DNA from: a bacterium | Lineage (GTDB): Bacteria; Fidelibacterota; Fidelibacteria; Fidelibacterales; Fidelibacteraceae | Assembly (NCBI GenBank): GCA_963676395.1 | Contig: OY781066.1 | Location: 576,001-640,000, forward strand | Length of the DNA: 64,000 nt | Reading direction: 5' to 3' | Shown here: piece after piece, positions 17,596 to 61,479 of the stretch | Layout of the letters: the number at the start of each line of letters is the position of its first letter | Numbering within the stretch: position 1 is the first letter of the stretch | Notes under the pieces: model-generated | What the model was told of the DNA's origin: nothing | Databases searched by the model: none | Seen by the model: the letters and a program-made list of their open reading frames with translations, nothing else | Made by a program: the position numbers and the translations under genes

Positions 17596-17671
17596 CTTTA
17601 CCCTTTCAAAAATAATTATTTCAGTGCACCCAAATTTACAATTTTCAAAGAAGAATCAAATAACTTTTAAG

Positions 17672-32091: not shown

Positions 32092-32121
32092 AAAAAAAGC
32101 CCGTCAATGACGGGCCTTTTT
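32092..32121 (-). terminator. intrinsic terminator closing the TonB receptor locus
   Basis: GCCCGTC-AAT-GACGGGC flanked by A- and T-tracts. Confidence 0.8.
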
Positions 32122-32141: not shown

Positions 32142-33548
32142 TTATTTAAGAAGTGAGATCTTTCTTGTAACAGATTCGTCACCAAAAGTCATTTTAACGA
32201 TATAGTTACCTGATGAAAGGTTACTACCGTCAAATACAACATCGTAAGAACCAGCAGCCTGGTATTCATTTACGAGTGAAGCAACTTTTTTACCAGCAAG
32301 ATCAAAAACATTGATATCAACGATACCGTTGTTTGAAATTGTGTAAGGGATAGTTGCTGAGGGGTTGAATGGGTTAGGATAAGCAAGATCAAGTGTAAAA
32401 GTTTTAGGACCTACTAAACCGGCATATTCCCATGTAGCTGTTTTACCTGTACGTGTGAAAAGCTTAGTGGTATAACCATAGAAGTCACATAGATACAGAT
32501 ATTCAGTCTGTGTATTAGCATCCCAATAATAATCTACCTGACAAGGTGCTCTCAATACCCATGGTTGTGAATATCCACCATTAGTGAAACGATCAGTAGA
32601 ATCAATGGCACCAGTAGCTAGCCAATGATCCCATTGCTGAACAACGGCCATACCCATGTCAATATCAGCCAAAGAAGCGACTGTAGTATCATATAGAGTA
32701 CTCATTTTAATTGAATAATCATCTTCAGGATCTAATACATAAATACCATCACGAGAAGATTCACGACTCATTACCCATAGATAATCGTTAGGGCCTGAAG
32801 AGACGTACATAATATTACCCATTTCCATGCCAAGATCATCCATCTTCAATGTATCTGACACATAACCATCCTTTGGGGTACCTGAATACTCAATTATATA
32901 CTGAGCAGCTAGACCAGGTGACCAAATTTTTGTACCGTCTTCATTTGCAGCCATGTTACGACCACCGCCGCCACCTTGAAGGGTGTCAATAGCGTCAAAA
33001 TCAGAGTTCCAAATAACAACTGTGCTTCCAGTGATCTGTTGTGAGCAATAGTACTGTTCGCCATCATAAGCAAATGCAGCTACACCACCACCAACATTCG
33101 GAAATACTGGATCTGCAGCACCGGGACTCTGAGCAATACATTCATAAGAATCTTGATCAAACACACGAATCATATCATTAGTCCAATCACCAAAAACCAC
33201 ATTACCATCAGCAGTCTTGTCCATAAAACGGCATGTACCCAAAGTATCAGCAACACCATCAGCACCAATGATCTCAGGACCGATTGTATCTATAACCCCG
33301 TAAACAGGATCATAAACCATGATTGCTTTTCTATAACGGTTTGTGTTATAGTAAGATGAAGTAAATACACGACCGTTTCCAGCTACCGCAACACCGTAGG
33401 GTAAGCCAAAGCCAGGTGCATTTACAAAAGTCGTATCATCAGTTCCAATTTTGTTACCACAAATAACTGCGCTATCAAAAGAATATTCAACAGCGAAAGC
33501 GGTTACAGCAAGAACTGAAAACAGAGCAATAATTAACACTTTCTTCAT
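32142..33548 (-). CDS. secreted beta-propeller-like protein with T9SS type A sorting domain
   Basis: Signal peptide; LPYGVAVAGNGRVF NHL-like blades; AYPNPFNPSAT...SSGNYIV...RKISLLK. Confidence 0.7.
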   Translation of the reverse strand: MKKVLIIALFSVLAVTAFAVEYSFDSAVICGNKIGTDDTTFVNAPGFGLPYGVAVAGNGRVFTSSYYNTNRYRKAIMVYDPVYGVIDTIGPEIIGADGVADTLGTCRFMDKTADGNVVFGDWTNDMIRVFDQDSYECIAQSPGAADPVFPNVGGGVAAFAYDGEQYYCSQQITGSTVVIWNSDFDAIDTLQGGGGGRNMAANEDGTKIWSPGLAAQYIIEYSGTPKDGYVSDTLKMDDLGMEMGNIMYVSSGPNDYLWVMSRESSRDGIYVLDPEDDYSIKMSTLYDTTVASLADIDMGMAVVQQWDHWLATGAIDSTDRFTNGGYSQPWVLRAPCQVDYYWDANTQTEYLYLCDFYGYTTKLFTRTGKTATWEYAGLVGPKTFTLDLAYPNPFNPSATIPYTISNNGIVDINVFDLAGKKVASLVNEYQAAGSYDVVFDGSNLSSGNYIVKMTFGDESVTRKISLLK

Positions 33549-33691
33549 TTTGTTCTCCTTTTTAGGTTTTACTCAAACTAATTAACATTTAACATAGCAG
33601 ATATTAAATAATTATTCATCTAGATGCAACATTTTTTAATACTCAATTATAAAATCACACTTAAGAATATATACAAAAAATCGTTTCAATA

Positions 33692-35914
33692 CTAACGGAT
33701 AATAATAAATTTTTTAATTATTGATTCCCCTTTTTTTAACAGAAGTAGACCACTGTTTGGCTCTATAATATTCTTTGTTACCTGAATATGAGCGATATAT
33801 ACACCACTCTTTATAACCTGTCTTGATTCAGTACTACTATACCATGCTTTATCTGCCAATGGAGACATTCCTTCTTGAGTTACATGATCCAATACATCAA
33901 CCAAATCACCACGTTCTGTAAATATACTAATTTTACAATTTTCCGGTAAATTATAGAACATTAGTTTGTCCTTATCTACACCTTTGCCAAAGGTCATCTT
34001 ACGATTCTTAATATTGTATGGATTAGGGACGATTCTAATAATGCCAAGAACAGCATTACTACGCTCCTCATCACTAATCAAACCTGCGTTGTACATTTCA
34101 GCAATATCTGACATTAAAGCGCCATCGTCTGTCAGATCACGTGGTGGTTTCTTTAAAGAAGCCGGAATGGTAGTTTGGGTATAAACTCTACCACTTTCTA
34201 AAATACCAACATCTGGATCAACCACATACGAAACCACATAGTAGTAATAGTTAATTCCGCGTAAAAGCTCAATATCATCATAATAATTTACTACATTCCC
34301 CTCGCTTACAGAACAATCAAAAATACAATGGTAAAATGAGTCCGCTTCTAGCATAGCCCTATAAATACGATATCCTTCGAACCGTGGATCTGTTTCGGCA
34401 TTATCAGCCCATTCAATTTTAATCATATCAGGTTGAGGCATTAGATTAAAACTTAGGGGAGGAGGTGGTGCTTGAGGAATACCATAATTACTTTCAAAAT
34501 TCTCTTTGGCTTTATAAAACGTCTTTATGATAGAATCTTTTCCGGTATACACCCAGGAATCCTTATAAATATCCATCATTGGAGCTTCAGTATCGAGGGG
34601 ATCTACATCATGATATTCAGGTGCAGAAGGTAATTCTAAAATGGGGCTTGCTCCTAAATATGCTTTATACCAATTTTGGCCAACCTCAATCGCTTTTTTT
34701 CTATCTATTCCGGATACACCTTCACAAATAACAACCCTTATGGATTCTCCCATGGGGATTTCATAGGGGCCAAAACTAAGATAACTGTTCGTACCGGCTG
34801 ATGCTCTATCCTTGATAATCGAATATGGTGCTAGTCTATCAGCGATCTTATGTTCAGCATATTCATCTTGTGCCACATCAAAGGTACCAAGATTTTCATA
34901 ATTATTATTCAAAAAATTCCACGCATGCATATCAGCACCTTCCGGGGGAACCGAATCACCTACATACCATCCAAGACGTAGTTTGTTGTTTTTATCATCA
35001 CTTCGATCATCATATGCGGCATCTGCATGTAAAACAGCCATTCCTGCAAATTGTGGTCCGCGTATACGAGCCTCGTCATAAGAACCCTCTGTTGGCAAGA
35101 ATGGAATACCAACATTATCATAACTCATGGTGATATCAACCGTCTTTGCTTGTCCCAACCAAGTGTAAAAATATGGCAGATCGGGATTATTTTGCATGGG
35201 TGTATGATGCACCCATTGATGCGCACCCCAACCGGCCTGTCTTAAATTTGTTACTGTTCTGGCTTCACGACAGGTACAGTATCTTGAAGCCATTCCAAAA
35301 TAAAAATCATGAATGGTTTCATTTAATTCTATTTGTTCATCCCCATCAATATTCCCGGTATTTTCAAATGTATATTCGTAAATAAAATAATTGTCGTTAT
35401 ACTGTTGACTGAAAGCAAGCACTTTTCGAGTCATTTTTATACCTAAACCCGTATGAATAATATTGGTTACTTCCCTATCTGGGATTTGCTCGGGATCAAT
35501 ATTTGTTCCAATATAATCATTGACATATTGAGTTATACCATCAACAGTGATCTGCGTATTGGGATATTTCCCCCATTGTTCTAAGACCATTGGTGTTAAT
35601 TGATCTGGACTACTTGTTGTATGAAATTTTGCCGATTTATATTCTTGAACGTCCCCATTCATGTCTGTAAAATTACGACATGCCATAAACTGTCTATCGA
35701 TCACAAAATTATCTGTTTTATTATACCACGCAGGCCACTGGAGTCCAACATATCTAGATAAATTTGCATCATGTCCTCTTTCCGCGCCCCAAGCATCAAA
35801 TGGAGTCCAGAGAGAACCCACAGTCACCCAGGTTCTATTACTTAAAGGAATAACCGCGAATGCTACACTTATAATAAAAACAAATACTAAAGCAATGAGT
35901 AATTTCTTTTTCAT
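33692..35914 (-). CDS. secreted ~740-aa protein with FN3 domain and variant sorting tail, paralog 3
   Basis: Signal peptide from MKKKLL; PQAPPPP-IEW-GYRIYR-YYYYVVSY FN3; IVPNPY...IFTERGDLV...SGVYIAH...KKFIIIR. Confidence 0.75.
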   Translation of the reverse strand: MKKKLLIALVFVFIISVAFAVIPLSNRTWVTVGSLWTPFDAWGAERGHDANLSRYVGLQWPAWYNKTDNFVIDRQFMACRNFTDMNGDVQEYKSAKFHTTSSPDQLTPMVLEQWGKYPNTQITVDGITQYVNDYIGTNIDPEQIPDREVTNIIHTGLGIKMTRKVLAFSQQYNDNYFIYEYTFENTGNIDGDEQIELNETIHDFYFGMASRYCTCREARTVTNLRQAGWGAHQWVHHTPMQNNPDLPYFYTWLGQAKTVDITMSYDNVGIPFLPTEGSYDEARIRGPQFAGMAVLHADAAYDDRSDDKNNKLRLGWYVGDSVPPEGADMHAWNFLNNNYENLGTFDVAQDEYAEHKIADRLAPYSIIKDRASAGTNSYLSFGPYEIPMGESIRVVICEGVSGIDRKKAIEVGQNWYKAYLGASPILELPSAPEYHDVDPLDTEAPMMDIYKDSWVYTGKDSIIKTFYKAKENFESNYGIPQAPPPPLSFNLMPQPDMIKIEWADNAETDPRFEGYRIYRAMLEADSFYHCIFDCSVSEGNVVNYYDDIELLRGINYYYYVVSYVVDPDVGILESGRVYTQTTIPASLKKPPRDLTDDGALMSDIAEMYNAGLISDEERSNAVLGIIRIVPNPYNIKNRKMTFGKGVDKDKLMFYNLPENCKISIFTERGDLVDVLDHVTQEGMSPLADKAWYSSTESRQVIKSGVYIAHIQVTKNIIEPNSGLLLLKKGESIIKKFIIIR

Positions 35915-35969
35915 AATGATCTCGTTTCCATTGTGATACAAAAATCATATCGTAAATAAATCGATAAAT

Positions 35970-36002
35970 AAAAAAGGGCCTGTAAAAACAGGCCCTTTTT
36001 TT
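35970..36002 (-). terminator. strong intrinsic terminator inside the locus
   Basis: AAAAAAGGGCCTGT-AAAA-ACAGGCCCTTTTTT perfect stem. Confidence 0.8.
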
Positions 36003-36009
36003 AAAAACT

Positions 36010-36732
36010 TTACTCAGGTTTTATCATCAGATCTATATATCCGAATTTCCCGGGAGCAATAGCGTTTTGAACATGAATGGTTATCAAAGCATTTACAACT
36101 TCAATTTCCGCGGGGATTACCTTTAATTCGGTTGCACTGGCTTCAACAACTGTACCTAATTGATGGCTGTGTGTTGCCCAATCGGTAATTGAACCATAGG
36201 TAGTGGTTGTCTTTTCTAAGTGAACATAACCAACAGTATCCATTGTATCCATTTGTGTGAATACAGGAGTTGCTTCAATCTTTACGATTGTAATAGCATT
36301 AGTGTCCATTACGGTATAAGCTTCAACACTTACAGCCTCCATTAAAGAATCAATTGTTGAAAAACCATCAATGGTTGTTGTTACATATACCATATAACCT
36401 GATGAACTAACTTCAACTTCTTTTAAAGGAGTTGTTATTGTATAACTACCGTCAACATTTATTGAGTCAATGGTTACTGTTGTATCGCCAATCACGGGTT
36501 CACTAACTTCTGAAAAATATACAAGGTTATAAGCTGTAGAATCAGAAAAATTTGTACCGGTGATCGTTAGTGTATCGCTAGTCCACATTGTCGCTTTATC
36601 AATTGCGGTAATGTTTGGAGTCTTTGCATTTTCGGCATCGGGGTCAATAGGTTTGTATATTGAGGGGGGTACCTCAAAACAGCCGACCAGTAATAACACC
36701 GCGATGAATGCTGGAATTAAGATTTTTTTCAT
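36010..36732 (-). CDS. lipoprotein with interrupted IPT/TIG-like domain
   Basis: Lipobox LVGC; TPNITAI...TLTITGTNFS...NLVYF then VVEASATELKVIP. Confidence 0.65.
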   Translation of the reverse strand: MKKILIPAFIAVLLLVGCFEVPPSIYKPIDPDAENAKTPNITAIDKATMWTSDTLTITGTNFSDSTAYNLVYFSEVSEPVIGDTTVTIDSINVDGSYTITTPLKEVEVSSSGYMVYVTTTIDGFSTIDSLMEAVSVEAYTVMDTNAITIVKIEATPVFTQMDTMDTVGYVHLEKTTTTYGSITDWATHSHQLGTVVEASATELKVIPAEIEVVNALITIHVQNAIAPGKFGYIDLMIKPE

Positions 36733-36746
36733 TTTAACACCTTTAA

Positions 36747-38969
36747 TTATCTTATGATTATGAATTTTTTAACAATTGACTCACCGGCTTTAAGCAGGGG
36801 AAGTCCTGTTTTTTCTTCTGAAATATCTTTGGTAACCTGAATATGAGCAATATAAACGCCGCTCTTGATCACCTGACGCGAATCGGTAGCACTATACCAA
36901 GCTTTATCAGCAACCGGTGACATACCTTCAGGGGTTACATGATTAAGAATATCTACAAGATCTCCGCGTTCAGTGAATATTCTAATATCACAGTTTTCCG
37001 GTAAATTGTAGAACATTAGCTTATCTTTGTCACTTCCGGTTCCAAAACTCATCTTACGATTTCTAATATTGTATGGATTGGGGACAATTCTAATCATACC
37101 CAAAACTGCATCCGTACGTTCTTCATCAGTAATCTCACCATTCGCGTACATTTTAGCGATATCGGAAAGCAATACATCGTCGTCGGAGACATCTCGTAAT
37201 GGTTTTTTCAATGATGCAGGAATCGTTGTTTGCGTATATGCACGACCACTTTCCAAACCATCACTATCATAAGCAACTATATAATAGTAGTAGTTAATTC
37301 CACGAAGCAATTCAGTATCTTCGTATTTATTTACAACATTACCTTCACTTACATTACAATCGAAGATAGGTGTATAAAACGAATCGGGCTCCAACATTGC
37401 ACGATAGAGACGAAAACCTTCAAAATCCGGAGCTGTCGTTGAGTTATCATCCCATTCCAAAACAACTTTATCAGGTTGTGGTGATACTGAAAATGATAAT
37501 GGAGGTTCAGGGGGTAATTCAATTCCATACCCGCTGTCATAGTTCTCTTTAGCTCTTTGGAATGTTTGAACGATTGAATCTTTACCTGTGTAATGCCATG
37601 TGTTTTTATAAATATCTTTAGCTTCAGCTGTAAATGAAGTTCCTTCAATGGGTGTATCTTGAGCAATGGTACCATCAGGAAGATCCAATGTAACAGAGTT
37701 ACCGTTATATGCTTTATACCATTTTTTACCAATCTCAACGGCTTTTTTACGATCCAAACCCGAAACACCTTCACACATAACAATTTTAATTGATTCACCA
37801 AAAGGAATTTCATAAGGACCAAACGTCATGTATGAATTTGTACCGGCAGAACCTTTATCTTTAATAACACTGTAAGGTGATTGCTTATCGGCGATTTGGT
37901 GGTTTGCATAAACATCTTGAGGAACATCAACGTTTACAAGACCCTCATAATTATCATACAAAAAATTCCAAACGCGTTCATCAGCACCTTCAGGTGGCAC
38001 TGAGTCACCAATGTGCCAACCCATTCTCACTTTGCTATTATCGTTGGTGGAATTACTTGTGGATTCATCCGCATGTAAAACAGCCATACCGGCAAACTGA
38101 GGACAGCGAAGTCTAGCTTCATCTAAACTTCCTTCTGCAGGTAGGAAAGGGGCTCCAATATTATCATAAGTCATAGTAATATCAGATGTTTGCGCTTGTC
38201 CCAGCCAAGTATAGAAGTATGGAATATCCGGGTTGTCAGCCATAGGTGTGTGGTGTACCCATTGATGAGCTCCCCAAGAAGCTTGACGGAGGTTTGTTAC
38301 ATAATACGCTTCTCTTGATGTACAATATCTTGACATCATACCAAAATAAAAATCGTTGATGGTTGAACTCAGCTCTATTGCATCATCGTCGTCAACATTT
38401 CCGGTATTTGTAAAAGTGTATTCATAAATAAAGTAATTATCATGATTTGCCTGACTGAAAGCATAAATCTTTCTAGTCATTTCAACACCCAAACCGGTTC
38501 TAACCACATTGGTTACAACACGATCCGCTGGTGTTTCAGTACCATCATGAAAATTTGAGCCAATATAATCATCAACATATTGAGCGGTGCCATCAACAGT
38601 AATTTCACTATAAGGATATCTTGCAGTCTGTCTTAGCACTTGAGGGACCAACTGATTATTGCTTGCTCCGGTTGAAAATTTAGCTGATTTATAAGGTTCA
38701 ACCGCACCTGAAGCATTTGTAAAATTTCTACATGCCACAAACTGGCGGTCAATCACGAAATTATCGGTTCTACTGTACCATGCCGGCCAAATTAATCCTT
38801 CATAATAGGATCCATTGGAATTCCATCCACGTTCAGCGCCCCAAGCATCAAAGCAGGACTGCAAAGAGCCAACCTTGACCCAAGTACGGTTACTGAGCGG
38901 GATGGCCGAAAAGGCCATGCCGGCTACAAGAACCAATGCTAAAAATACTAATATATGTTTTTTCTTCAT
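36747..38969 (-). CDS. secreted ~740-aa protein with FN3 domain and variant sorting tail, paralog 2
   Basis: Signal peptide; closely similar to paralog 3 over its whole length; ends KKFIIIR. Confidence 0.75.
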   Translation of the reverse strand: MKKKHILVFLALVLVAGMAFSAIPLSNRTWVKVGSLQSCFDAWGAERGWNSNGSYYEGLIWPAWYSRTDNFVIDRQFVACRNFTNASGAVEPYKSAKFSTGASNNQLVPQVLRQTARYPYSEITVDGTAQYVDDYIGSNFHDGTETPADRVVTNVVRTGLGVEMTRKIYAFSQANHDNYFIYEYTFTNTGNVDDDDAIELSSTINDFYFGMMSRYCTSREAYYVTNLRQASWGAHQWVHHTPMADNPDIPYFYTWLGQAQTSDITMTYDNIGAPFLPAEGSLDEARLRCPQFAGMAVLHADESTSNSTNDNSKVRMGWHIGDSVPPEGADERVWNFLYDNYEGLVNVDVPQDVYANHQIADKQSPYSVIKDKGSAGTNSYMTFGPYEIPFGESIKIVMCEGVSGLDRKKAVEIGKKWYKAYNGNSVTLDLPDGTIAQDTPIEGTSFTAEAKDIYKNTWHYTGKDSIVQTFQRAKENYDSGYGIELPPEPPLSFSVSPQPDKVVLEWDDNSTTAPDFEGFRLYRAMLEPDSFYTPIFDCNVSEGNVVNKYEDTELLRGINYYYYIVAYDSDGLESGRAYTQTTIPASLKKPLRDVSDDDVLLSDIAKMYANGEITDEERTDAVLGMIRIVPNPYNIRNRKMSFGTGSDKDKLMFYNLPENCDIRIFTERGDLVDILNHVTPEGMSPVADKAWYSATDSRQVIKSGVYIAHIQVTKDISEEKTGLPLLKAGESIVKKFIIIR

Positions 38970-38990
38970 TTAATTATCCTTGCTATAAGT

Positions 38991-41900
38991 CTAGAAACTG
39001 ACAGACAATCCCAAAGTAAAGGTTCTTGGATACAAGAAAGTCATAGAAGTCAAGTTAGGCATATCAATATATGCTCTTTTATTATATAGGTTTTCTACAA
39101 CATCTTTATCTTGAAGCACAAATTCTGATCCATTCCATCGGTAAAAAGACTCACCTTTATCTATACCATCCGCTTGATTGTGATAAAGAACAGATTCAAG
39201 AGGATCACTCACTGAACTAATGTCGGCATGTGATTCAATCGGAACAAATTCACCATAAGTATTTATATCACCGATCTTATCATTTCCGCGGAAGACTTCA
39301 TTTTCTTCCCAGAACAAGTGTAATGAGTTAATATAACCATCTTGCCAATCAATTGAACCAGTTGCACCAGTAGATGAAAGTGATTTAATATTAAATACAT
39401 TATCAACATCTAAATACAACTTAAAGTTCATATTGCCCATTGAAAGAGTTTTTGAAACTCTCAAGTCACATGACCAGGAATCTTTCCATTCAAAGGGATA
39501 ATAAATAGTATTATCAGCCGGCAAAGTAACTCTAGAATATGAATTTCTGCTAGAGTATCCACCATCGCTCCACTTAGCAAGAATACTTGCTGTCCAGTTA
39601 CCTGAGATCTGAGGGCTCATTCCCCAAAGAGAAAAATCAGCGGGTGTTTTCAGGATCAGGTTAGCACGAGCATAAGGCGAAGGGTATGGATAATTTTCTA
39701 CCGGGTTATCTTTTAGATCTCGTTCTCTTAGCGCAGGATTCGTTAGATATTCTTCTTTATCCATAGGCATACCGAATGCACCTGATCTATAAATTTGGTA
39801 TGTAAAATTCACAAAACCACTTACCCAGCGACCAGATTTCTTAAGTGTTAATTCCAAACCACTTACATCTTTGTACTCACGAGATTCTGCCAAGTAATAA
39901 CTTGTTTGACCTTTACCACTTCCTAGACTGATGTATTTTGTCCAATCTTCTTCATTCTTGGTATCATTATAAAAAGCAGCGATCTTAATCAGATATTGAT
40001 CAAAGAGACTGTGTTCATAACCCAACTCATACATGATTGTTTTTGAAAATGGTAATTCGGGATTACCTAGGTAACGAATATTACCGCCATCACCGTAGCG
40101 ATCCACAAGATACAAATAACGTGCTGTTGGCTGAGTTGAGAAATGTCCATAGTTAAAATACAATTTTGAATTAACTGAAATAGGGTGTGAAATACCAATA
40201 CGGGGGTTTAAGCTATGGACAGCCTTTGTATTACGATAGCTAGCCAATGTATCTAAATCAAAACCATATACTGCATTTAATAATGTATCATATGCTGTAA
40301 GATCATACCAATCGCCGTTCAGGTCATACATATCGTAACGTAAACCGGCATTTACGACCAAACCTTCGAATTCAAGTTTATCAAGAACGTAAGCACCCAA
40401 ACGAATGGGTGTTTGATCCCAGTTATGATAATTTTCCCATGTAGTCATAGGAGCGACCAACCATGAATCAACAACATTATGTGTATACATGAAGTTAAGT
40501 CCGGTTTTGATCTGGCTGTGTCTATTGATCTGATTTTGATAATCGGCTTTAATGGTTGTTGCAGTATTATAACTTCGATCTCTTGCAAAACCGGCCCAAT
40601 CGGTTCTGGCGCCATCAATTAAGCTTGGACTATAACTAATATGATAACCACTGGGATAATCATTCATGATCCAATGATCATATGCACCATAAATATCTTT
40701 GAACATTCTTAGTGTATCAGTAAGGTCCAAAGAATCCATAGGTGTAATACTATAGTTTGTTCTTGTATGATTTACGATCAATTTTGCAAATGATTTTTCA
40801 TTAAATTGATGATTTAATTCTGCTCCATAACCCCAACGTTCAATATCGATCGGATTATTATAGCCATTTTGAAAAACAGCATACGAAGTAGAAGCTAAAT
40901 TCGCAACGCTCCAATCAGAAGAATAATATCCACCGCTTGAAGGACTGTTGTTATTTGTAGTACTAACACCCTGTGTTAAACCATAGTTTCCAGAGAATGT
41001 TAATGTAGTTTTTTTATCAAGATCCATTGTTAAATTGGCACGAAAAGCATCATCATTCAAATTATTTCTGGAAAGAGGGATGATATATGCTCTTTGACTT
41101 CCTCGGTATGATATAAAAAATCTTGTATTCAAAGCCTTCATAATAGGACCGCCAAAACCAACATCAACGATATAATCGGGTGATGTGTGTGATAGTTGAC
41201 GGCGATGTTCGTATTCGTAGATCGCTTTCAACTGCGCCGGTGTCATATCATTACTAGGATCCGCATCTTGCATCAATTGTTGAGATAAGCCATTGTAACC
41301 ACCTTCAAAACCGCGGTACTGTGCTTTTTCATAAATATCCCATGCACTATTATCTGTACCCGTCCAACAAACATCCTCATCAAGATATGATCTATGCCAA
41401 TACCCCATAGGGTCTGCGAGGTCATTTCCAAAGTGTTTAGCTTGAAGGGGTGTATACTTAATATCAAAAGATCCGGTATATTTTTCGCGATCACCTTTTT
41501 TAGTCACAACCGAAACAACACCCGAACGGGCATTGTCATATTCAGCCGAAAAGCCACCCACTTGGACCTGAACTTCCTGAACAGCAGAAATAGGCATAGA
41601 CGTATAAGGAGTATTTGAACGCGAATCATTTGTTGACATTCCATCAACAAGATACGTCATTTCATCTGTATCTCCACCACGAATACTTAATCCGTCAACA
41701 CCGGCCTGGAGTGAAACCGCTTCGGAAATACTTTTTACAGGCATTTCCTTGATCTCATCCTTAGAAATGTTGGTTTGGCTGGAAGAAATATCGGTTCTAA
41801 CGATAGGTCTTTTAGCTACAACAACTACTTCTTCTCCCTTATAAGCTTCAACAGACATAAGGAAGTCAACTTTAGTGTTTAGATCAATCTTTACAATAAT

Positions 41901-42164: not shown

Positions 42165-42186
42165 CGTTTCATCCAATAGTAATTGG

Positions 42187-43197
42187 TTAGAATGAGTATC
42201 TTAGTGTAATGCTTTGAGTATTATTGAAAATACCGAAAGGAGTGTAAGAGTAATCAAAAATGATTCCAGCAACACTAACACCAGTTCCAAAAGTCAAACC
42301 GCGCTCATCACGATTTCCCATATAACCGACTCTGGCAAAGAAAAGATTTTGAAATTTATATTCCAGACCTAGGTCAATGTATTCCGGATATGATCTGGGA
42401 TGACTGGCATCCATACTAAATAGCAATGAATGAGCAGGATTTGATTCTTCAAACAGATCCATAAGATCCATTGAAACACCCATAGTGAATGTCAAGGGAA
42501 GCTGAAAACTTTCTTCTTCATACATTACTTCACCAGAGAAGTTTCTAACGCTCATACCAAAAACAAAGCTTTTCCACCCTGTTTTAAAATATGTACCAAA
42601 ATCAAAAGCAAAAGCGCTTTGTACATATCGTCTGGTTTCCACAGAATTGGTACTCTCTTGACGATTTTGAACCAAAACGTTACTTACACCAAGATCCTGA
42701 GTAATCCATTTAACCTGACCACCCACTGAGAACTTAGTACTCAAAGCCATAGCATAACCTAAACCTAAATTAATAGCAGTAGGGTGAATTATGCCTGTTT
42801 CAATATAACCTTGGTCATTTCCCCAAAATTCAGTTGCCTCAATTTCACCGTAATCTACATTTGCCAATGAAAAAGCAACCGTACCATAACGGCCATCACC
42901 CAAAGTCATTGCACCTGAAAATGCATTATGTTTTATATCGGCAATCCAGTTATTATATGATGCCGTCAAATCAATCGCGCTATTCATATAACCTAGAGTT
43001 GCTGGATTGTAATAAATAGCAGCAGAACCGCATTCTACAGAGTTCAACGCACCAGCCATACCATTGGCTCTTGCATCTGAGCGTACGCTCAGAAATTGAA
43101 AACCCGTTTGGGCAATTTTATTGTAATCATTTTCTGCAAACACCATTGAGACGCTTAACAAAATGATCAGTACCAGTACAATACTTTTATGTTTCAT
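42187..43197 (-). CDS. PorV/PorQ-family outer-membrane beta-barrel
   Basis: AQTGFQFLSV..DARANGMAGA, IYYNPA N-terminal signature; FDYSYTPFG...SITLRYSF. Confidence 0.82.
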   Translation of the reverse strand: MKHKSIVLVLIILLSVSMVFAENDYNKIAQTGFQFLSVRSDARANGMAGALNSVECGSAAIYYNPATLGYMNSAIDLTASYNNWIADIKHNAFSGAMTLGDGRYGTVAFSLANVDYGEIEATEFWGNDQGYIETGIIHPTAINLGLGYAMALSTKFSVGGQVKWITQDLGVSNVLVQNRQESTNSVETRRYVQSAFAFDFGTYFKTGWKSFVFGMSVRNFSGEVMYEEESFQLPLTFTMGVSMDLMDLFEESNPAHSLLFSMDASHPRSYPEYIDLGLEYKFQNLFFARVGYMGNRDERGLTFGTGVSVAGIIFDYSYTPFGIFNNTQSITLRYSF

Positions 43198-43232
43198 AGA
43201 GATTTCCTCTTTTTTCATTTAGTGAAACTAAT

Positions 43233-44705
43233 TTATTTTACAAAAATCATATTGATGTCTTCACCGGCAAAACTTGGAGAAACTGTCATCAGGTAAAGGT
43301 TTTCATCAAAATTATACATATAAATCACTTTGTCAATATCGGCACTTACAAACAATTCTTTGAATGTGACCCCAGTGACATTGGCTGTGAAGGGATTGAA
43401 TTTCTTACCACCAGTATCAAAATCTTGGATACGCTTATACATTGTAATAGCACCTCTATCTAGAAATACTCTTAAAGTATCAACATCTTCCATATCTACA
43501 ACGTCAAGAATAAAAATTCCCTGAGGGAGATCTTTCTCAAAAGTAAATTTAATACCTTTGTTCATATCAGCAGTTGTGACAATATCCAAACCACTAAGTA
43601 GAGCATTCATTTTGTCGGCATTTCTTAATAGATCAGTAACAGACAACTGTTCATCAGGCCCCCATAGTGTTGAATCACATTGGTAACAGCTATGCAAAGC
43701 TTTTGTAACTGTCGGAGCAAATAGTTTGTCTACAATAGCTCTTGTCTCAGCATCTTCAGTGTACATTGAGTTAAAAATACCTACACTGAATTTGAAATAG
43801 TTTTCAATACCTTCGGGAGTTGTTGCAAACTGGCCCGAAGATTTTGTTGATTCCGCTCTTAACCATCTCACGAAATAGCGACCAACAGGAAGATCATATT
43901 TGATTTTAGCAACAACTTCACCTGATCCACCATCGCCGCGACCACCGAATTCAGCAGCCATTGTCCAGTTAATGCTGTTATCTTTCATAGGTACTCTTAC
44001 ACCATCTTCATCCCAAACTCTCATTGACATGTGTTCATCGAAATAGAATGTATATTCATCTTCGGTTGTAATATCAACATATGAATACAGTGACATAACT
44101 TCAATCGCTTGACAAGTAACTCTATAACGTTTCTCACCTACTTCAAGTACCGGGATATTACCGGTTTTACCATACAAGCATCTAACGGCTTCCGTATAGA
44201 ATTCCATATTAGAGTATGTGGTAGGAATATTGAATATCTGTTCTGCACCGGTTGAATTTATAGTTGAGAAAGTTGCAGCAATTTCTGTTTCAATATCATC
44301 TGTAATGATCACTTCATCAAAACTCTGACCGGTTAACATACTGCTAACAACTGAATCAGTTTTATTTAGATAAAGTTCAATAGTTGATATTGAATCATAA
44401 TAATTTTCAATTGTGGCAAATGCAACGGTACGGTTGGCATCACCATTAACGATCTGTGCTGTAATTTTAGTATTGATAATTTTATCATCAGTAGCATTCA
44501 GCATTAAAGCATCAACATTCTTATCATCAAGAAAATAAGGATCTGTTAATGCAAAAAGTGTTTTACCCGTATATAAACCGTTATCAACGGAAATACATGC
44601 GGCCTTGTCGAAATGTTCCATTTCGTATGTGTCGGTGTTTTCCCATATGGAACAACTTACCAATGCGAACATCACCAACATCAGAAGAATAACTTGTTTT
44701 TTCAT
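43233..44705 (-). CDS. hypothetical lipoprotein
   Basis: Lipobox LVSC; no recognisable catalytic motif. Confidence 0.6.
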   Translation of the reverse strand: MKKQVILLMLVMFALVSCSIWENTDTYEMEHFDKAACISVDNGLYTGKTLFALTDPYFLDDKNVDALMLNATDDKIINTKITAQIVNGDANRTVAFATIENYYDSISTIELYLNKTDSVVSSMLTGQSFDEVIITDDIETEIAATFSTINSTGAEQIFNIPTTYSNMEFYTEAVRCLYGKTGNIPVLEVGEKRYRVTCQAIEVMSLYSYVDITTEDEYTFYFDEHMSMRVWDEDGVRVPMKDNSINWTMAAEFGGRGDGGSGEVVAKIKYDLPVGRYFVRWLRAESTKSSGQFATTPEGIENYFKFSVGIFNSMYTEDAETRAIVDKLFAPTVTKALHSCYQCDSTLWGPDEQLSVTDLLRNADKMNALLSGLDIVTTADMNKGIKFTFEKDLPQGIFILDVVDMEDVDTLRVFLDRGAITMYKRIQDFDTGGKKFNPFTANVTGVTFKELFVSADIDKVIYMYNFDENLYLMTVSPSFAGEDINMIFVK

Positions 44706-44722
44706 TTTTACCTCGACTCTGT

Positions 44723-47077
44723 TTATCGAATGATTATGAATTTCTTAAAGATCGAATCTCCGCGATCAAGTCTTACACCTGTTACATCGCTATAGAAATC
44801 TTCGATCATTTCTAGATGAGCAATATATACGCCACTAACCAGGATCTGTTGCCAATCGGTCGTTAGATACCATGCGTAACCTTCTTCACTTTCGGTTACT
44901 TCAGCTACATAATCGCCTCGTTCAGTGTATATCTTAATTCTGCAACCCGAAGGTACACGAGCAAATAACAGTTTATTTACATTACCAATAAACTGGATTT
45001 TTTCATTTCGAACATTGATAGGATTAGGAACAACTTTTACAAGTTTTTTCATAAGTTCCTTTCTATCGTTCGGATCATCGAGATCATATTGTGAAACATC
45101 AATATCTTCGGGTGGAGCCGGAGGACTTTTTACCGTAGCACCACGATTTGTTCTTGTATAGAACGGAGAAGATTTTAATGCAACACCGGGTTCAATAATA
45201 TTTTGACTTCCATCATCGTAAGAGACAAGATAGTAAAAATAATTCTGACCTTTTAGAGGTTCGGTATCAACATATTCAAATTCCGTATCAGACCCTTCTT
45301 GCTTATAGCTATCAAGACCTTCATCTAAATTGATGTCTGCAATTTCATAATATGTTGAATCCTTTTCAATAAATGCACGATATATCTTAAATCCTTGGAA
45401 AGCTGGTGAAGCTAAGGCTTCGGTTCCATCCCATTGAATCTTTACACCATCTTCAGTTGAAAAGATCTCTACAGTTTGTGGAGGTCTTGGTGCCTGAGGA
45501 ATACCGGCATAAAAATCTGATTTATAAAGATTGATTGCACGACGGAAAGTATTCATCAACGAATCACGACCACTGTAAACCATCGCATCTTTCCAGGCAT
45601 CTCCGGCTGCTTTACCGCTAACAGAAATAGTTGATGTTGGGTTAGCTGGATCGATCAAATCAAGTGTTTCGCCACCATAAACTACTTTATACCACTGCTG
45701 ACCTACCCAATAGGCATAATCATGATCTAAACCGGCAGCACATTCTGCAAAAGCAATCTTGATCTTTTCACCCGGGGCAATCGTATATGGACCAAAAGCC
45801 AACATCTGCGAATAACCGGCAGATCCATTTGCTTTAGAATAATCACCGGCTTTACCATCAAAGGTATCCCAAATTCTTTTAGCGTGATTTGCCCTGTGCC
45901 CACCTTCCATGTGTTGTTCATACTTGTAGGTCATACCGGTTGCATCATATTGATCCAAACCGGCTGTATTTGTATAAGGATGGTTTGAATTAATAAACGA
46001 GCTACCTGTTGGTTGGGCAAGATCATCACTTTTATCACTGGCTGATTTATCTGCATGGACAACAACCATTCCTTTATACTGAGCTGAACCCAAGCGTCCA
46101 TCATTAATAGCGGAGAAGCCATGATGAACCACTGAATTTACATTGGGAGAGCCGATATTATCATAACCAAAGTCCGACCATAACCCCATCCAAGAGGCAT
46201 AGCCGCGCATCCAATTACCTTCATTGTCCTGTGCATCCTGACCTGTGCGATCAACATAAGGAGAAGTAACAATAGGATTGTTTTGATCCATGCCAATTAC
46301 ATCAGTCATCATACTGTAACCCCAACGTACATCACGAACAGATGTAGATATCCAGTTACGATGAGCTGTCGTATATACGCCGTTCCAGCAACCTTCCTGA
46401 GAAATAGCATCACGCCATTGCCAATGAAAGTAAACATCTTCTAATGTTTGAGAATAAACATTGCCATCGGCATCATAAATACCGGTGTTTTCAAACTCAT
46501 ATTCAATAATATGAATATTATCGTAATTCTGCTGTGATACGGCATAAACCTTTTTAACAAAAGTCAGTCCGGTAGATGTATTAACTGTATTGGAAACGAT
46601 GCGATCTGCAAGTTGAGCAGGATTAATTTCGTCAACATCATCGTTCTTTCCATTTGTACCATTCATCATATCGGAGCCTTCGCTTTCATCCACATATACT
46701 TCGGGATGAGCATAACGAGCGCTCATTTTAAGTTCCAGAGGAATAAACTCTCTAATTTCGATATCAGGCACGGAACGAGGACCATTATGAACAACTTTAT
46801 GAGGATATACAAAGCCTTTGACGGGATCGTAAAAGTTCTTTACACCAATCCACATACCTTTAGCAGCCTGCATATCTTGGTCACGATAAAACGAATCCCA
46901 AGTAAATCCCCATTGTTGCTGACCATAGTTAACTTCTTCCCATTCTGTACCGGTATCATAATAGAAGTTCCATAAGGAACCTATCGTGATCCATTTATAA
47001 CGGGTTGCGGCTTGAGTTGACAGAACTGTCATCAACAACAGAACGAATATCAAGCCTTTTCTAAGATTTCTAATCAT
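44723..47077 (-). CDS. secreted ~780-aa protein with FN3 domain and variant sorting tail, paralog 1
   Basis: Signal peptide; FGPYTIAPGE, PQAPRPP, GFKIYRA, YFYYLVSYD; VVPNPI...IYTERGDYV...SGVYIAH...KKFIIIR. Confidence 0.75.
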   Translation of the reverse strand: MIRNLRKGLIFVLLLMTVLSTQAATRYKWITIGSLWNFYYDTGTEWEEVNYGQQQWGFTWDSFYRDQDMQAAKGMWIGVKNFYDPVKGFVYPHKVVHNGPRSVPDIEIREFIPLELKMSARYAHPEVYVDESEGSDMMNGTNGKNDDVDEINPAQLADRIVSNTVNTSTGLTFVKKVYAVSQQNYDNIHIIEYEFENTGIYDADGNVYSQTLEDVYFHWQWRDAISQEGCWNGVYTTAHRNWISTSVRDVRWGYSMMTDVIGMDQNNPIVTSPYVDRTGQDAQDNEGNWMRGYASWMGLWSDFGYDNIGSPNVNSVVHHGFSAINDGRLGSAQYKGMVVVHADKSASDKSDDLAQPTGSSFINSNHPYTNTAGLDQYDATGMTYKYEQHMEGGHRANHAKRIWDTFDGKAGDYSKANGSAGYSQMLAFGPYTIAPGEKIKIAFAECAAGLDHDYAYWVGQQWYKVVYGGETLDLIDPANPTSTISVSGKAAGDAWKDAMVYSGRDSLMNTFRRAINLYKSDFYAGIPQAPRPPQTVEIFSTEDGVKIQWDGTEALASPAFQGFKIYRAFIEKDSTYYEIADINLDEGLDSYKQEGSDTEFEYVDTEPLKGQNYFYYLVSYDDGSQNIIEPGVALKSSPFYTRTNRGATVKSPPAPPEDIDVSQYDLDDPNDRKELMKKLVKVVPNPINVRNEKIQFIGNVNKLLFARVPSGCRIKIYTERGDYVAEVTESEEGYAWYLTTDWQQILVSGVYIAHLEMIEDFYSDVTGVRLDRGDSIFKKFIIIR

Positions 47078-47095
47078 TTTTTACTCACTTTCCGA

Positions 47096-50000
47096 TTATA
47101 GATCAATTGACAATTGAACACCCACATAAATACGTCTAGGATTCAAGAACATGTAAGCCGTGTTTGCAGGATTATCAATATAAGCATTGCTTTCAATTAC
47201 CTCTTTGACCACATCATCACTGACGGTCGTAATTATTCCATTTTCGGTACGTGACCACAAACCTGTTTCTTCAACATAATAAATTACACTTGGATCTGAA
47301 ACCTGTGTAGTATTATTAGCAAACTCCATAGGTTGATATGCTACACCACCAGGTCTATAATCATAGTATTTATCTGCAGAAGCTTTGGTACCTTCCGGAT
47401 AATATTCGGGTGAGAGGTGATCCTGATCGGTTTCTTCGTATGCTGCTGTTGGAAAATGCAAGGATTCAATATAATGATCTACCTGATATCCATCAACTGT
47501 AGAATAACCGTTACCGTAAGCTTGTCCAGCCAAACTCAATCTTTTCAAATTAAAAAGATTATCAATCTGCATTAACAAATTCAAGTTAACAGGACCCAGC
47601 TTTAAAGGTTTCATCAGCTTCATATTGCAATAATATGAGTCTCTGATCTCAATAATATTCGAATAGAAGCCTCTTGTTCTGCTTGTATAATACCCGGCAT
47701 CATACCAACTACCATTCACAGAAAGACTCCAGTTACCCAAAAGCTGACCATATTGTGCTGGTGTGCGTAATACAATATTTGCTTTAACCGAAGGAAGAGG
47801 AATGCTCTTTGATTGTTTTTTACTATCTGTATTCTGGATCATCTTAAGATAAGCCTCAGATCCTTCATCTTCATAAACACTTGGCCAATCAAAAGTACCG
47901 TTACTTGAAGATCGTAAATTCAGATTAATAAAACCACGAAGCCATTCGCCACGGCGTTTTTTCAAGGTAACTTCCAAACCGCGAATATCCTGATAGTATC
48001 TATCATCTGAAACATCATAAGAAATACCGTCGATACTCCGGTATGTTGTTGTCGTAGCTTGATTGGTTTTATCTTTATAGTATGCAGCAATGTGCAATAA
48101 ATAATCACTTGTGATAGCTTGATCAAAACCTAATTCGTAAGAAACGGTTTTTTCAAACTGTGTTTCGGGATTACCAATCCATGATAAACTATAATCACCA
48201 TATCGTCTTAACTGGAAATAATAATCCGGATCCATTTTCTGATACATATGACCGTAATTGAAGTATAGCTTAGATGTTTCGGTGATGGGATGCGAGATAC
48301 CAACACGAGGCATCACTTTAAACTGACCTTTTGCTTTACGAGTCGGGAAAGTTGCACTTGCCAAAGAATCATTTAGCGCATAAGGCTTATAAAGATCGCT
48401 TAAAAAAAGTTCATCCCATCCCAATGAATCCATGTCATACCACTCACAATTTGGATTCCAGTATTCGGCTCGAACACCCATCTGTGCAACCAAGCCTTCG
48501 TATTCAAGTTTATCGGTTATATAGGCATCAATTTGAAAAGGATTTTGTACCCACATGGTGTTTGTCGCAGTCGAGGCTGTAAGTGATTTTTCTGATCCGT
48601 AGTTCATATCATAAACCCAATACTGAGCCTGAACTCCGGCCTTGACCTCATTGCGATCATCTATCTGTGATTTAATATCATATTTTGCTTTAATATGTGA
48701 TGTTTTTGTACTGTCATAAGGCCACTGTACATATCCTGTAAAGAAATTAGTTGTTGCATTTGTACGATCCATCACAGTATGAAAACCATAAGGTCTTTCA
48801 TCCATATAAAGGTCAACACCTTCAATACCTGCAAAAATATCATATAAAGTTGTATCTCTTACTTCACCCGGATATGAATTGTAGGCAGTCTGTGAATATT
48901 CAACAGAACCTTCCCAGAACGTTCTTTCATTCACAATACTTTTTAATGTAGCAGCATACATGCTATTAGCACGCTCTGTCAAGCCATAATAGTTCGGATA
49001 GAACAGTCTTGACATAGCCCAACCACCAGAGATGGCTCCAGATCCCGTAGTGTAAACACCCGGAGTACCGGAAAGACTTGTAGCCGTACCGTGATAGCCA
49101 TTTAACATACTAAATAAACTTAGTTTTGTTTTTTGGCTCAAATCACTGGTGACCTTAGCGGTCCAAGTCCAATCTGCATACTTATCTGTCGCCAAAGGTT
49201 GCATGTAAGCGGTCTGATTTGCTAGATATGTGGTAAAAAATCTTAAGTTACCAAGTTTTTTACTAAAAGGAAGAGGGCCACTCAATGAAAAATCTACATT
49301 ATAATTAGGTATTTGTTTTGAGTAAAAATCATCGCCACGGCGTACAAGATATCTAAATTGTTGCTGTAAAGCCAAAGGCGAAAGATCGTTAGTTGGGTCA
49401 TCATCATTCATCAATCCTTCAGATACTGCATTCCAACCGTCAAACTTAGCGTATTCACCTTGAGTATGAGCATCCCAAGCACCATTATCGGTACCTGTCC
49501 AACATACTTCATCATCAAGATATGGTCTCAAGAAAATAGAATTCTCATCATACATTGATGTAACAACATTTCCTGAAATATCTGTCGAAGCAAAGTTTCT
49601 GTTTTGGTAAGGACTGTACTTAATATTTGCGCTTACTCTGATTTTTTCAGGATTACCTTCTTTAGTAACAATACTAACCATACCGGATTGAAGATCGGAG
49701 TATTCTGCAGAAAAACCACCGGATTGAACCATGATCTCTTCAATCGAAGATAAAGAAATATTTGAGATCGGATTACCCGTACGGTTATCTTTCATGGTTA
49801 AACCATCAACTAACAATGTCGTTTCATCAAGATCTCCGGCACGAACCTCCAAACCACTCATACCAGCTTCCATACCAATAACATCTTCAATGTCTGTAGC
49901 TGGAAGATCCATAATCTCATCTTTACTGATATTCAACTGACTGGAAGCAACATCAACCTGAACCGGCTTACGTTCTGCGGTTACAACGATCTCTTGACCT

Positions 50001-50320
50001 TTAAATGCTTGAACTTGAAGATCAAAATCTAACAATGTAGTCAAATCAATGTTTATCGCCACTTCTTGTTTTACAACTTTCGCATAGCCGATATAGGTGG
50101 CTGTTACTTCATATTCTCCCGGGGGAATATTAAGGATAACATAGTACCCCTCAGCATTTGCCGCCGCACCCATTGATGTACCAGCCAGCAATACATTGGC
50201 GCCGGCCATCGGCTCCCCTGTTGCTGCATCGCGGACAACACCGGAAAGTTTACCGGTAGTACCAGCGAATGCTATACTGATAATCATTAGCATTACGACT
50301 AATAATTTTTTTAGCCTCAT
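47096..50320 (-). CDS. TonB-dependent receptor 1 with carboxypeptidase-regulatory-like N-domain
   Basis: GTTGKLSGVVRD...PMAGANV, GGFSAEY, MPRVGISHP, EKTVSYELG, NPRRIYVGVQLSIDL. Confidence 0.9.
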   Translation of the reverse strand: MRLKKLLVVMLMIISIAFAGTTGKLSGVVRDAATGEPMAGANVLLAGTSMGAAANAEGYYVILNIPPGEYEVTATYIGYAKVVKQEVAINIDLTTLLDFDLQVQAFKGQEIVVTAERKPVQVDVASSQLNISKDEIMDLPATDIEDVIGMEAGMSGLEVRAGDLDETTLLVDGLTMKDNRTGNPISNISLSSIEEIMVQSGGFSAEYSDLQSGMVSIVTKEGNPEKIRVSANIKYSPYQNRNFASTDISGNVVTSMYDENSIFLRPYLDDEVCWTGTDNGAWDAHTQGEYAKFDGWNAVSEGLMNDDDPTNDLSPLALQQQFRYLVRRGDDFYSKQIPNYNVDFSLSGPLPFSKKLGNLRFFTTYLANQTAYMQPLATDKYADWTWTAKVTSDLSQKTKLSLFSMLNGYHGTATSLSGTPGVYTTGSGAISGGWAMSRLFYPNYYGLTERANSMYAATLKSIVNERTFWEGSVEYSQTAYNSYPGEVRDTTLYDIFAGIEGVDLYMDERPYGFHTVMDRTNATTNFFTGYVQWPYDSTKTSHIKAKYDIKSQIDDRNEVKAGVQAQYWVYDMNYGSEKSLTASTATNTMWVQNPFQIDAYITDKLEYEGLVAQMGVRAEYWNPNCEWYDMDSLGWDELFLSDLYKPYALNDSLASATFPTRKAKGQFKVMPRVGISHPITETSKLYFNYGHMYQKMDPDYYFQLRRYGDYSLSWIGNPETQFEKTVSYELGFDQAITSDYLLHIAAYYKDKTNQATTTTYRSIDGISYDVSDDRYYQDIRGLEVTLKKRRGEWLRGFINLNLRSSSNGTFDWPSVYEDEGSEAYLKMIQNTDSKKQSKSIPLPSVKANIVLRTPAQYGQLLGNWSLSVNGSWYDAGYYTSRTRGFYSNIIEIRDSYYCNMKLMKPLKLGPVNLNLLMQIDNLFNLKRLSLAGQAYGNGYSTVDGYQVDHYIESLHFPTAAYEETDQDHLSPEYYPEGTKASADKYYDYRPGGVAYQPMEFANNTTQVSDPSVIYYVEETGLWSRTENGIITTVSDDVVKEVIESNAYIDNPANTAYMFLNPRRIYVGVQLSIDL

Positions 50321-50411: not shown

Positions 50412-50440
50412 AATTTATAGCATAAAACAAAGTTTGTCAA
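50412..50440 (-). promoter_or_regulatory. sigma70-like promoter for the TonB receptor operon
   Basis: Minus strand TTGACA (50440-50435), 17-nt spacer, TAAATT (50417-50412), about 90 nt upstream of the receptor 1 ATG. Confidence 0.6.
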
Positions 50441-54381: not shown

Positions 54382-54543
54382 TCTAATCTCCTTCTAAATT
54401 AGTGACGAGTATCCAGTTCCCGATCCATCACTTCACTTGTTTAATCTTCAATTGCAGTAGCGATGCTTGAATCGCTCTTTTTTTATCATTCCAACCAGTC
54501 AAAGGACCCTTTGCTTCTTTCCAGTGCCGATTTAATTATCACG

Positions 54544-61190: not shown

Positions 61191-61479
61191 ACTTATTCCT
61201 CCAGCGTGTTGCCGTATTATAGGGATTCTTTATTATAAATACACTTATTTATTTGGGGTTAAATTTACAGGTTTAGGGTTTAAGGTCATTAGGATAATTT
61301 TAGCTTATCGAAGTATTTTGGCTTCCGTATTCTGGATTCCGGTATCCTTTGATCTTTCACTTTATTCATTAATCATAATTGCCTCAATTCTCAATCGAAT
61401 TGTCAATTATCCTTTGTCAATCATCAATTTTATTGTATTTTCCCTCAAACTAAAGAAAGAACGAATATTGGAGAATAAG

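Follow-up and report, generated by a model that had tools for sequence, protein, structure and literature searches.

Which protein would serve a TonB-dependent receptor at the cell surface where SusD is missing, and what would such a pair import? This question is raised by an operon of nine genes flanked by dnaX and lpdA, within a 64-kb stretch of DNA (the window: OY781066.1, 576,001-640,000, to which the coordinates below refer) from a Fidelibacterota genome, hereafter G000, which consists of one 2.34-Mb contig (C1) and has a completeness of 95.3%. Two receptors are each followed in it by a large secreted partner with a non-canonical type IX secretion system (T9SS) tail, and a PorV-family barrel is co-encoded. 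This architecture is real and deeply conserved; it is SusC/SusD-like by position, PorZ/PorQ-like by tail and barrel, and a member of neither system. We read the operon as a SusD-free outer-membrane importer, with peptidoglycan fragments of foreign bacteria as its likeliest cargo, a reading whose chances we regard as evenly poised. The SusD-less T9SS/TonB architecture put forward in a first-pass annotation of this DNA is partly supported by our results; that annotation gave no substrate, and the link to peptidoglycan suggested here is new to the present analysis.

Gene order and conservation of the locus

The nine open reading frames (ORFs) are co-oriented on the minus strand over 32142..50320, in the order that had been described. 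The features of the locus are listed in transcription order, with protein lengths in amino acids (aa):

50412..50440, minus strand: sigma-70-like promoter candidate 5' of receptor 1 (10/12 consensus match)
47096..50320, minus strand: TonB-dependent receptor 1, 1074 aa (PF13620/PF13715 and PF07715 plug)
44723..47077, minus strand: secreted partner 1, 784 aa (beta-supersandwich, FN3 and non-canonical T9SS tail)
43233..44705, minus strand: lipoprotein 1, 490 aa, unnamed family (lipobox-like Cys18 in the sequence)
42187..43218, minus strand: PorV/PorQ-family barrel, 343 aa, likely start 43197, candidate dedicated shuttle/anchor (NF033709)
38991..42176, minus strand: TonB-dependent receptor 2, 1061 aa, likely start 42164 (AlphaFold2 model, Foldseek)
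36747..38969, minus strand: secreted partner 2, 740 aa (AlphaFold2 model and fold matches)
36010..36732, minus strand: IPT/TIG lipoprotein, 240 aa, short form of a ~420-aa family (PF01833 E 0.0018, below cut-off)
35970..36001, minus strand: intrinsic terminator-like hairpin after the seventh gene (folding against shuffles)
33692..35941, minus strand: secreted partner 3, 740 aa, likely start 35914, record P0022 (copy of partner 2)
32142..33548, minus strand: type A T9SS cargo, 468 aa, probable beta-propeller (TIGR04183, 44 bits)
32093..32121, minus strand: terminator-like hairpin at the end of the locus, after the ninth gene (fold analysis)

The gaps between these genes measure 18, 17, 14, 10, 21, 14, 68 and 143 nucleotides (nt) in transcription order, which bears out the tight spacing noted for the first seven genes (10-21 nt). 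The terminator placed 3' of the IPT/TIG lipoprotein is likewise borne out by a hairpin of -22.1 kcal/mol (z -6.6) that none of 200 shuffles matched. It is position alone that points to the promoter candidate, since sigma-70-like matches in the region are not above chance (52 found vs 75 expected).

Scans of the nine proteins against Pfam and NCBIfam matched no SusD and no hydrolase family, in agreement with the first-pass annotation. The description of the locus as SusD-less extends to the genome: PF07980 (SusD) was detected neither in G000 nor in any of 32 genomes of its family, the Bacteroides control being positive. A mutual exclusion of SusD and the partner across genomes was considered and is not supported, as 24 of 60 SusD-positive genomes also carry the partner.

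The gene order recurs in related loci and is therefore not due to chance. In relatives, the usual order is receptor 1, partner 1, lipoprotein, barrel, receptor 2, partner 2, IPT/TIG lipoprotein and type A propeller, with the barrel and the TIG gene moved or doubled in some loci; the expected synteny of receptor and partner across genomes holds in them. Among 163 loci with neighbours, many of them cut short, the lipoprotein-1 family is present in 101, the TIG family in 107 and the propeller in 86. The same arrangement is found in loci from metagenomes; their partners share 70-76% identity with KSB1- or Calditrichaeota-named proteins, from which the phylum of these loci is deduced. The repeated triplet of receptor, partner and lipoprotein that had been proposed stands for the receptors and the partners, which are related pairwise, but not for the lipoproteins, which are mutually unrelated (BLAST, none at E<=0.01). 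Each of the latter represents its own conserved neighbour family, and the triplet is thus not a duplicated unit.

Receptors, partners and the PorV-family barrel

Both receptors carry an N-terminal carboxypeptidase-regulatory-like domain and a plug (Pfam) and are 35% identical over their full length. The AlphaFold2 model of receptor 2, obtained from a 125-row alignment with a predicted local distance difference test (pLDDT) score of 89, has 22 barrel strands, as counted by hand from the DSSP line; loop insertions of ~90 residues (about 243-333) and ~125 residues (about 926-1051) are predicted in its first and last extracellular loops, respectively. With Foldseek, this model matched TonB transporters, including SusC and RagA, at 9-13% identity, and HasR-HasA structures were also listed. 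Against the SusC/RagA model TIGR04056, receptor 2 scores 79 bits vs a cut-off of 368, and receptor 1 is unmatched. Weak BamP and anammox S-layer matches in the protein scans of the window were dismissed, as they cover the shared N-terminal extension alone.

The partners belong to no named family in the Pfam and NCBIfam scans. Partners 1 and 2 share 31.6% identity, whereas partner 3 is a 67.5% identical copy of partner 2 that lies behind the terminator without a receptor of its own and is missing in some close relatives (L007, L021). The AlphaFold2 model of partner 2 (pLDDT 88, 96-row alignment) shows, in this order, a mutarotase-like beta-supersandwich with linker helices, one FN3 domain and a C-terminal beta domain. 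Its N-terminal domain resembles the N-terminal supersandwich of GH15/65/94/116 enzymes (Z 16-18.6, root-mean-square deviation (rmsd) 3.1-4.4, 234-285 aligned), with 9ju0 as the top match (Z 18.6, rmsd 3.2, 256 aligned). Neither a catalytic (alpha/alpha)6 barrel nor a TPR solenoid is present in the model, in which FN3 and the tail strands come next instead. The earlier label of secreted FN3 proteins is therefore accurate in that FN3 is present (about 490-570 of partner 2), but it accounts for no more than about 85 of the 740 residues, most of which belong to the beta-supersandwich. As had been anticipated, the partner does not have the SusD fold, the model being mostly beta and no SusD Pfam match being obtained; SusD is also absent among the best 50 fold matches listed for it, which by itself excludes nothing.

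The partner profile matched FN3 domains only among the sequences of solved structures, and the N-terminal domain matched only unnamed clusters in the ESM Atlas. In a search of 1.84 billion, 757 representatives were retrieved at E<=1e-30, some of which are FN3-repeat proteins; the closest homologues are labelled Marinimicrobia/Fidelibacterota and more distant ones KSB1 and Calditrichaeota. At the same threshold the partner was matched in 152 of 301 phylum genomes, with at most three candidates scored per genome. An orphan partner-1 paralogue, 64% identical, is encoded at C1:665655-668009 with neither receptor nor barrel near. Away from receptors, the N-terminal domain is also met in proteins with canonical T9SS tails, where beta-helix or BNR domains are fused to it (P0122, P0125, P0175, P0199, P0222; L186-L191).

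The tails were tested in 23 cases, comprising 20 of the 45 sampled locus tails and the three window tails. The proposal that the partners are exported by the T9SS is sustained by homology, as HHalign aligned the partner tail with 57 type A tails of G000 at a probability of 96.7% (E 3e-10), but not by the type A model itself, since the TIGR04183 cut-off of 23 bits was reached by only one of the 23. The type B model TIGR04131 was matched by none of these tails at E<=0.1. The PorZ model was weakly matched (E<=0.1) by 18 of them and not by a canonical control tail; matches to the PorZ equivalog NF052228 were restricted to the tail, with up to 30 bits vs a cut-off of 260. In addition, the partner tail is unusually conserved.

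The barrel passes NF033709 with 194 bits against a cut-off of 90, which confirms its assignment to the PorV/PorQ group and is its best fit; it also lies above PF11751 (37 bits) and PF19572 (41.5) and falls below the PorV and PorQ equivalog cut-offs (PorQ NF033711, 82 vs 220 bits). Its identity is 25% to the housekeeping PorV-like barrel of G000 and, as a median, 48% to the barrels of related loci.

The fetched loci, 191 in number, yielded 258 distinct partners with a non-canonical tail; 15 partners were unclassable, and some canonical-tail regions had been picked on purpose. A receptor lies directly upstream in 217 of the 258 (217/235 assessable, with 23 at a contig edge and 18 behind other genes), and a PorV-family gene is found within three genes in 200. 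By comparison, none of ten canonical-tail homologues stands behind a receptor or near a barrel (one being at an edge), and in G000 a receptor precedes five of eight non-canonical-tail proteins vs none of 77 canonical ones. Taken together, these counts indicate that the tail class, the receptor and the barrel travel together. A further count of 231/236 for 'receptor then partner' was discarded because the loci had been fetched via the partner. Partner clades map onto receptor clades with a distance correlation of 0.93 over 201 pairs, a value that linkage alone could produce. Paired direct-coupling analyses were underpowered: for receptor and partner (201 pairs, effective 138) the top inter-protein z of 10.3 equalled that of the within-locus swap control, and for barrel and tail (122 pairs, effective 75) the top z was 9.1 vs 6.8-9.8 in random-pair controls.

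Four more modules of G000 combine a receptor, a large non-canonical-tail protein with a different body and a PorV-family barrel (C1:519509-527177, 1289061-1296298, 2128434-2135599 and 2091835-2101901), one of them beside an S8 protease. The three type-A-scoring proteins of G000 that lie directly 5' of PorV-like barrels, one of them PorU-like (C1:1318727-1324587, 1783823-1786366 and 1596584-1599456), all have atypical C-terminal ends and extend the rule of an odd tail with its own barrel.

With regard to the secretion machinery of the host, SprA is above cut-off in G000 (C1:1332099-1338488) and present in 295 of 301 phylum genomes, including 28 of 30 in a family with 0.7-1.1 Mb genomes; the accessible text of one paper describes it across the Fibrobacteres-Chlorobi-Bacteroidetes group (PMC12611786). 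G000 also encodes 77 type A tails, a C25 PorU-like protein and several PorV-family barrels, including the housekeeping one. The T9SS core genes on which the first-pass annotation relied are thus represented by SprA, but neither GldL nor GldM nor GldN was detected and GldK matches stayed below cut-off, in a comparison whose control set held no positive genome, a result partly against that annotation. The sequence evidence suggests that G000 may operate an SprA T9SS with an unrecognised or very divergent motor.

As for the remaining proteins, lipoprotein 1 has no Pfam or NCBIfam match, nothing at >=0.9 in the ESM Atlas and no detected internal repeat; in L005 and L192 it is broken up over two ORFs and partner 3 is truncated to 547 aa, through decay or assembly error. 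Homologues of the IPT/TIG lipoprotein pass the PF01833 cut-off. In this genus the lipoprotein measures about 240-296 aa, against about 420 aa for most other loci, and it seems to have lost its C-terminal part or had it replaced. The ninth protein passes TIGR04183, as the description of a T9SS beta-propeller implies, but the propeller label comes from SGL/NHL matches of homologues and not from a fold of the protein itself.

A proposed link to peptidoglycan and its rivals

No murA above cut-off was found in G000 (a weak match in the aro operon was taken as aroA), nor was murB; the genome has murC, murQ, four NamZ genes, four GHL10 genes and one T9SS amidase. murA was likewise found in none of the 32 genomes of its family, and many Marinimicrobia seem to be without their own cell-wall sugar synthesis. 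The amidases retain what we take to be the family His/Glu motif. In this regard, the accessible parts of the literature report peptidoglycan lytic activity for the GHL10 of Cwp19 (PMC6016235), and the use of exogenous muropeptides for peptidoglycan, carbon and energy by the phylum's cultured member (PMC11652737).

Neighbours of related loci include T9SS Amidase_3-Big5, GHL10-Big5 and NamZ proteins. Of the 82 distinct loci whose downstream side is visible for at least 5 kb, 44 carry GHL10 (27), Amidase_3 (17) or NamZ (9), against a background of about 6% of 20-kb windows in G000, a figure that is slightly low as one amidase was found later. Loci with peptidoglycan enzymes occur in 12 of the 15 families sampled, and GHL10 or amidase makes up 52 of 85 non-propeller type A cargo proteins in the loci (near-identical loci unmerged) vs three of 77 in G000. 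T9SS-tailed enzymes would act outside the outer membrane, so that foreign walls would be their target.

The same association is seen across genomes, in enzyme lists from which partial and different-architecture matches were dropped by eye. A full-length GHL10-Big5-T9SS enzyme is present in 95/152 partner-positive vs 2/149 partner-negative genomes, and a T9SS amidase in 79/152 vs 10/149. In eight mixed families (99 genomes), amidase or GHL10 occurs in 18/20 genomes with a strong partner match (E<=1e-180, also set by eye) vs 7/79 without, and in four of these families (79 genomes) in 12/14 vs 2/65. An unrelated T9SS cargo, the M14 peptidase, is present in 13/14 vs 35/65 of these 79 genomes; this control does not track the partner, and general richness of the secretome is therefore not the explanation. 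The partner occurs in 85 of 102 murA-less and 67 of 199 murA-bearing genomes.

These findings allow us to propose a model in which two TonB-dependent transporters are made, in a genome that encodes TonB_C proteins and thus, by homology, has TonB. Each partner would leave the cell through Sec and the SprA translocon, be collected by the co-encoded PorV-family barrel and, keeping its tail, stay on it as PorZ stays on PorQ. FN3 would serve as a stalk and the beta-supersandwich as a capture lid over the cognate receptor, according to prediction. Judging from the company these genes keep, T9SS-exported amidase and GHL10 enzymes would cleave the peptidoglycan of foreign cells extracellularly, the resulting pieces would enter through the two receptors, and wall synthesis and carbon supply would draw on them by way of NamZ, an AmpG-like permease, MurQ and MurC-F; the enzymes of the cutting and use steps exist in G000 but lie away from the locus. 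We hold T9SS export with a barrel tether to be probable and contact between receptor and partner to be rather favoured. Given import, peptidoglycan is moderately probable as the substrate. These three judgements are not independent.

Several observations weigh against this model. The export step has a gap, GldL, GldM and GldN being unmatched in G000, where no control genome passed the cut-offs, and 13 non-canonical-tail partners with full context have no PorV gene nearby. In the 20 kb fetched, peptidoglycan enzymes adjoin neither this locus nor any of nine loci of its family or of two of the sister family; one sister genus has namZ and murQ some 11-17 kb downstream with unrelated genes between, a weak link. 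Furthermore, 17 of the 102 murA-negative genomes have no partner match, and 67 genomes have both murA and partner. Related pairs adjoin LacI, ROK, CBM9 or sulfatase genes and another G000 module adjoins a protease, which indicates that the receptor-partner architecture is not substrate-specific. Finally, the genomes are kin and many are incomplete, and co-occurrence partly reflects physical linkage, as linked genes are lost together.

Some further observations touch on substrate. In family f12 (G027, G040, G044, G084), murA was not found in 4/4 genomes, a T9SS amidase is present in 2/4 and no partner is matched at E<=1e-30, representing a counter-example or a divergent system. Pairs in L159, L166, L172, L076 and L118 lie beside genes for LacI, ROK kinase, CBM9, sulfatase or a beta-lactamase-family serine hydrolase, as in a module reused for other substrates. 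A NAGPA phosphodiester glycosidase domain is found in the products of two tandem T9SS cargo genes 12 kb downstream of the locus (15127-20234, minus strand); the NAGPA family lies inside the locus in L058, L059, L102 and L112 and might, speculatively, act on N-acetylglucosamine (GlcNAc)-1-phosphate linkages such as wall-polymer anchors. A permease of the major facilitator superfamily lies directly 3' of a SpoIID-domain gene (C1 about 1529100-1532400; L209:7129-10391), likely forming a muropeptide-recycling pair with it; its AmpG label is tentative since the AmpG search match is below cut-off. Beyond dnaX, a sodium:solute symporter, a pullulanase-type GH13 and an alpha-amylase-family gene lie near the locus (52507-56607, minus strand; 61318-63867, plus strand).

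The same tethered-lid importer could serve another substrate, such as peptides, alpha-glucans or other glycans, with the peptidoglycan enzymes as neighbours of convenience. The sugar-type loci just described would fit this alternative, as would the GH13 and the symporter 2-6 kb upstream on the same strand, past dnaX, and the lack of an adjacent peptidoglycan enzyme in the family of this locus. We consider it unlikely, given the share of GHL10 and amidase in locus cargo, the behaviour of the M14 control and the placement of sugar-linked pairs mostly in separate small clades (five pairs in two clades, and three more among 150 main-clade pairs). It is improbable, in turn, that the partner is a surface enzyme, a lyase or endo-hydrolase on a supersandwich, beside a lidless receptor, being SusG-like rather than SusD-like. 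Catalytic supersandwich proteins do appear among its fold matches (GH174 fucanase, Z 13.4; mutarotase-like, Z 13.6), polar residues are conserved over 201 sequences (E46, D69, D126, D149, R150, R214, H299 and D301), and homologous domains occur alone with canonical tails or fused to beta-helix/BNR domains. However, the top matches are to the N-terminal domain and linker helices of (alpha/alpha)6 enzymes, the model has no counterpart of the catalytic barrel of these enzymes, no enzyme family is matched, and a fixed one-to-one pairing with the receptor suits a partner better than a shared enzyme.

If the barrel were a shuttle only, the partner would be released as a diffusible scavenger that docks, loaded, on its receptor in the manner of HasA and HasR. 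A single barrel for two or three partners at this locus, extra partners without receptors (partner 3 and the paralogue at C1:665655) and the 13 partners without a nearby barrel point in this direction, yet the unusually conserved tail resembles the retained tails of PorZ and PorU and many loci have two barrels for two partners, which makes this very improbable to us. A surface assembly with a structural or adhesive role, attaching the cell to prey or particles, would turn the receptors into anchors or sensors mainly, and the partner might then depart from ordinary use of the T9SS. Adhesins commonly contain FN3, IPT/TIG and propeller domains, and the canonical T9SS motor was not found. The receptor plug is nevertheless intact, with a TonB-box-like strand ahead of it, and the conserved neighbours include no sigma/anti-sigma or two-component family, save in one small group of loci; we thus rate such an assembly as highly improbable.

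Known systems and implications

The importer that we favour resembles SusC/SusD (RagA/RagB) in its large TonB transporters with an N-terminal extension, each with a dedicated surface partner directly next to it, and in its accessory lipoproteins; degrading enzymes accompany relatives of the locus, and none this one. It differs in that the receptors score far under the SusC cut-off, the largely beta partner has a T9SS-like tail and no lipobox, and a PorV-family barrel is co-encoded. In the HasA/HasR hemophore system, a secreted non-lipidated protein likewise serves one TonB receptor, and HasA is untethered; fold, secretion route and ligand are different.

The tail of the partner resembles the uncleaved, barrel-held tails of the PorZ-PorQ and PorU-PorV pairs in the attachment complex of Porphyromonas gingivalis. 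According to the accessible text of one source, both PorZ and PorU retain their tails, and PorQ serves as the anchor of PorZ (PMC10947112). The partner body, however, is a supersandwich and neither PorZ nor a C25 sortase, the barrel is no PorQ or PorV equivalog, and the present system is tied to a nutrient transporter. Type B tails pair with a barrel encoded directly downstream, as far as the available portions of two papers describe (PMC12618676, PMC9143113). Like these C-terminal domains and their PorP/SprF shuttles, which in that account specify final location, the locus combines a special tail class with a dedicated adjacent barrel gene; unlike them, it has no TIGR04131 match, its barrel fits PorV_fam best and no PorE-like gene is among its conserved neighbours.

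In Tannerella forsythia, loss of MurA/MurB is accompanied by salvage of the NamZ/AmpG type, and in Xanthomonas campestris the TonB transporter NixC is indirectly implicated in the uptake of bacterium-derived GlcNAc compounds (PMC7670621, PMC4173781). The accessible text of these sources names no outer-membrane importer for Tannerella and mentions no T9SS-tailed partner or barrel for Xanthomonas. The Caldithrix genome paper has nothing on SusD, secretion or fibronectin. We found no published description of the architecture, in a search with limited coverage of subscription literature, including the primary report on the cell-wall dependence of strain IA91.

Together, our findings lead us to put forward, tentatively and with more doubt than confidence, a dedicated machine, conserved throughout Marinimicrobia and closely matched by homologues in KSB1 and Calditrichota, for eating and re-using the cell walls of other bacteria. 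It would consist of two lidded TonB channels, a private PorV-type barrel, secreted hydrolases and SprA without a recognisable PorK-N motor, and our results flag this phylum-wide SprA system as one without a detectable canonical motor in G000. If the proposal is true, a second, independently built surface partner for a TonB transporter would exist, in which T9SS delivery and a barrel anchor replace the lipid anchor. It would also supply concrete candidate genes for how cell-wall-dependent Fidelibacterota bring muropeptides across the outer membrane and, since the locus is also found in murA-positive families, would make bacterial necromass a food that a widespread phylum of marine and subsurface habitats targets.

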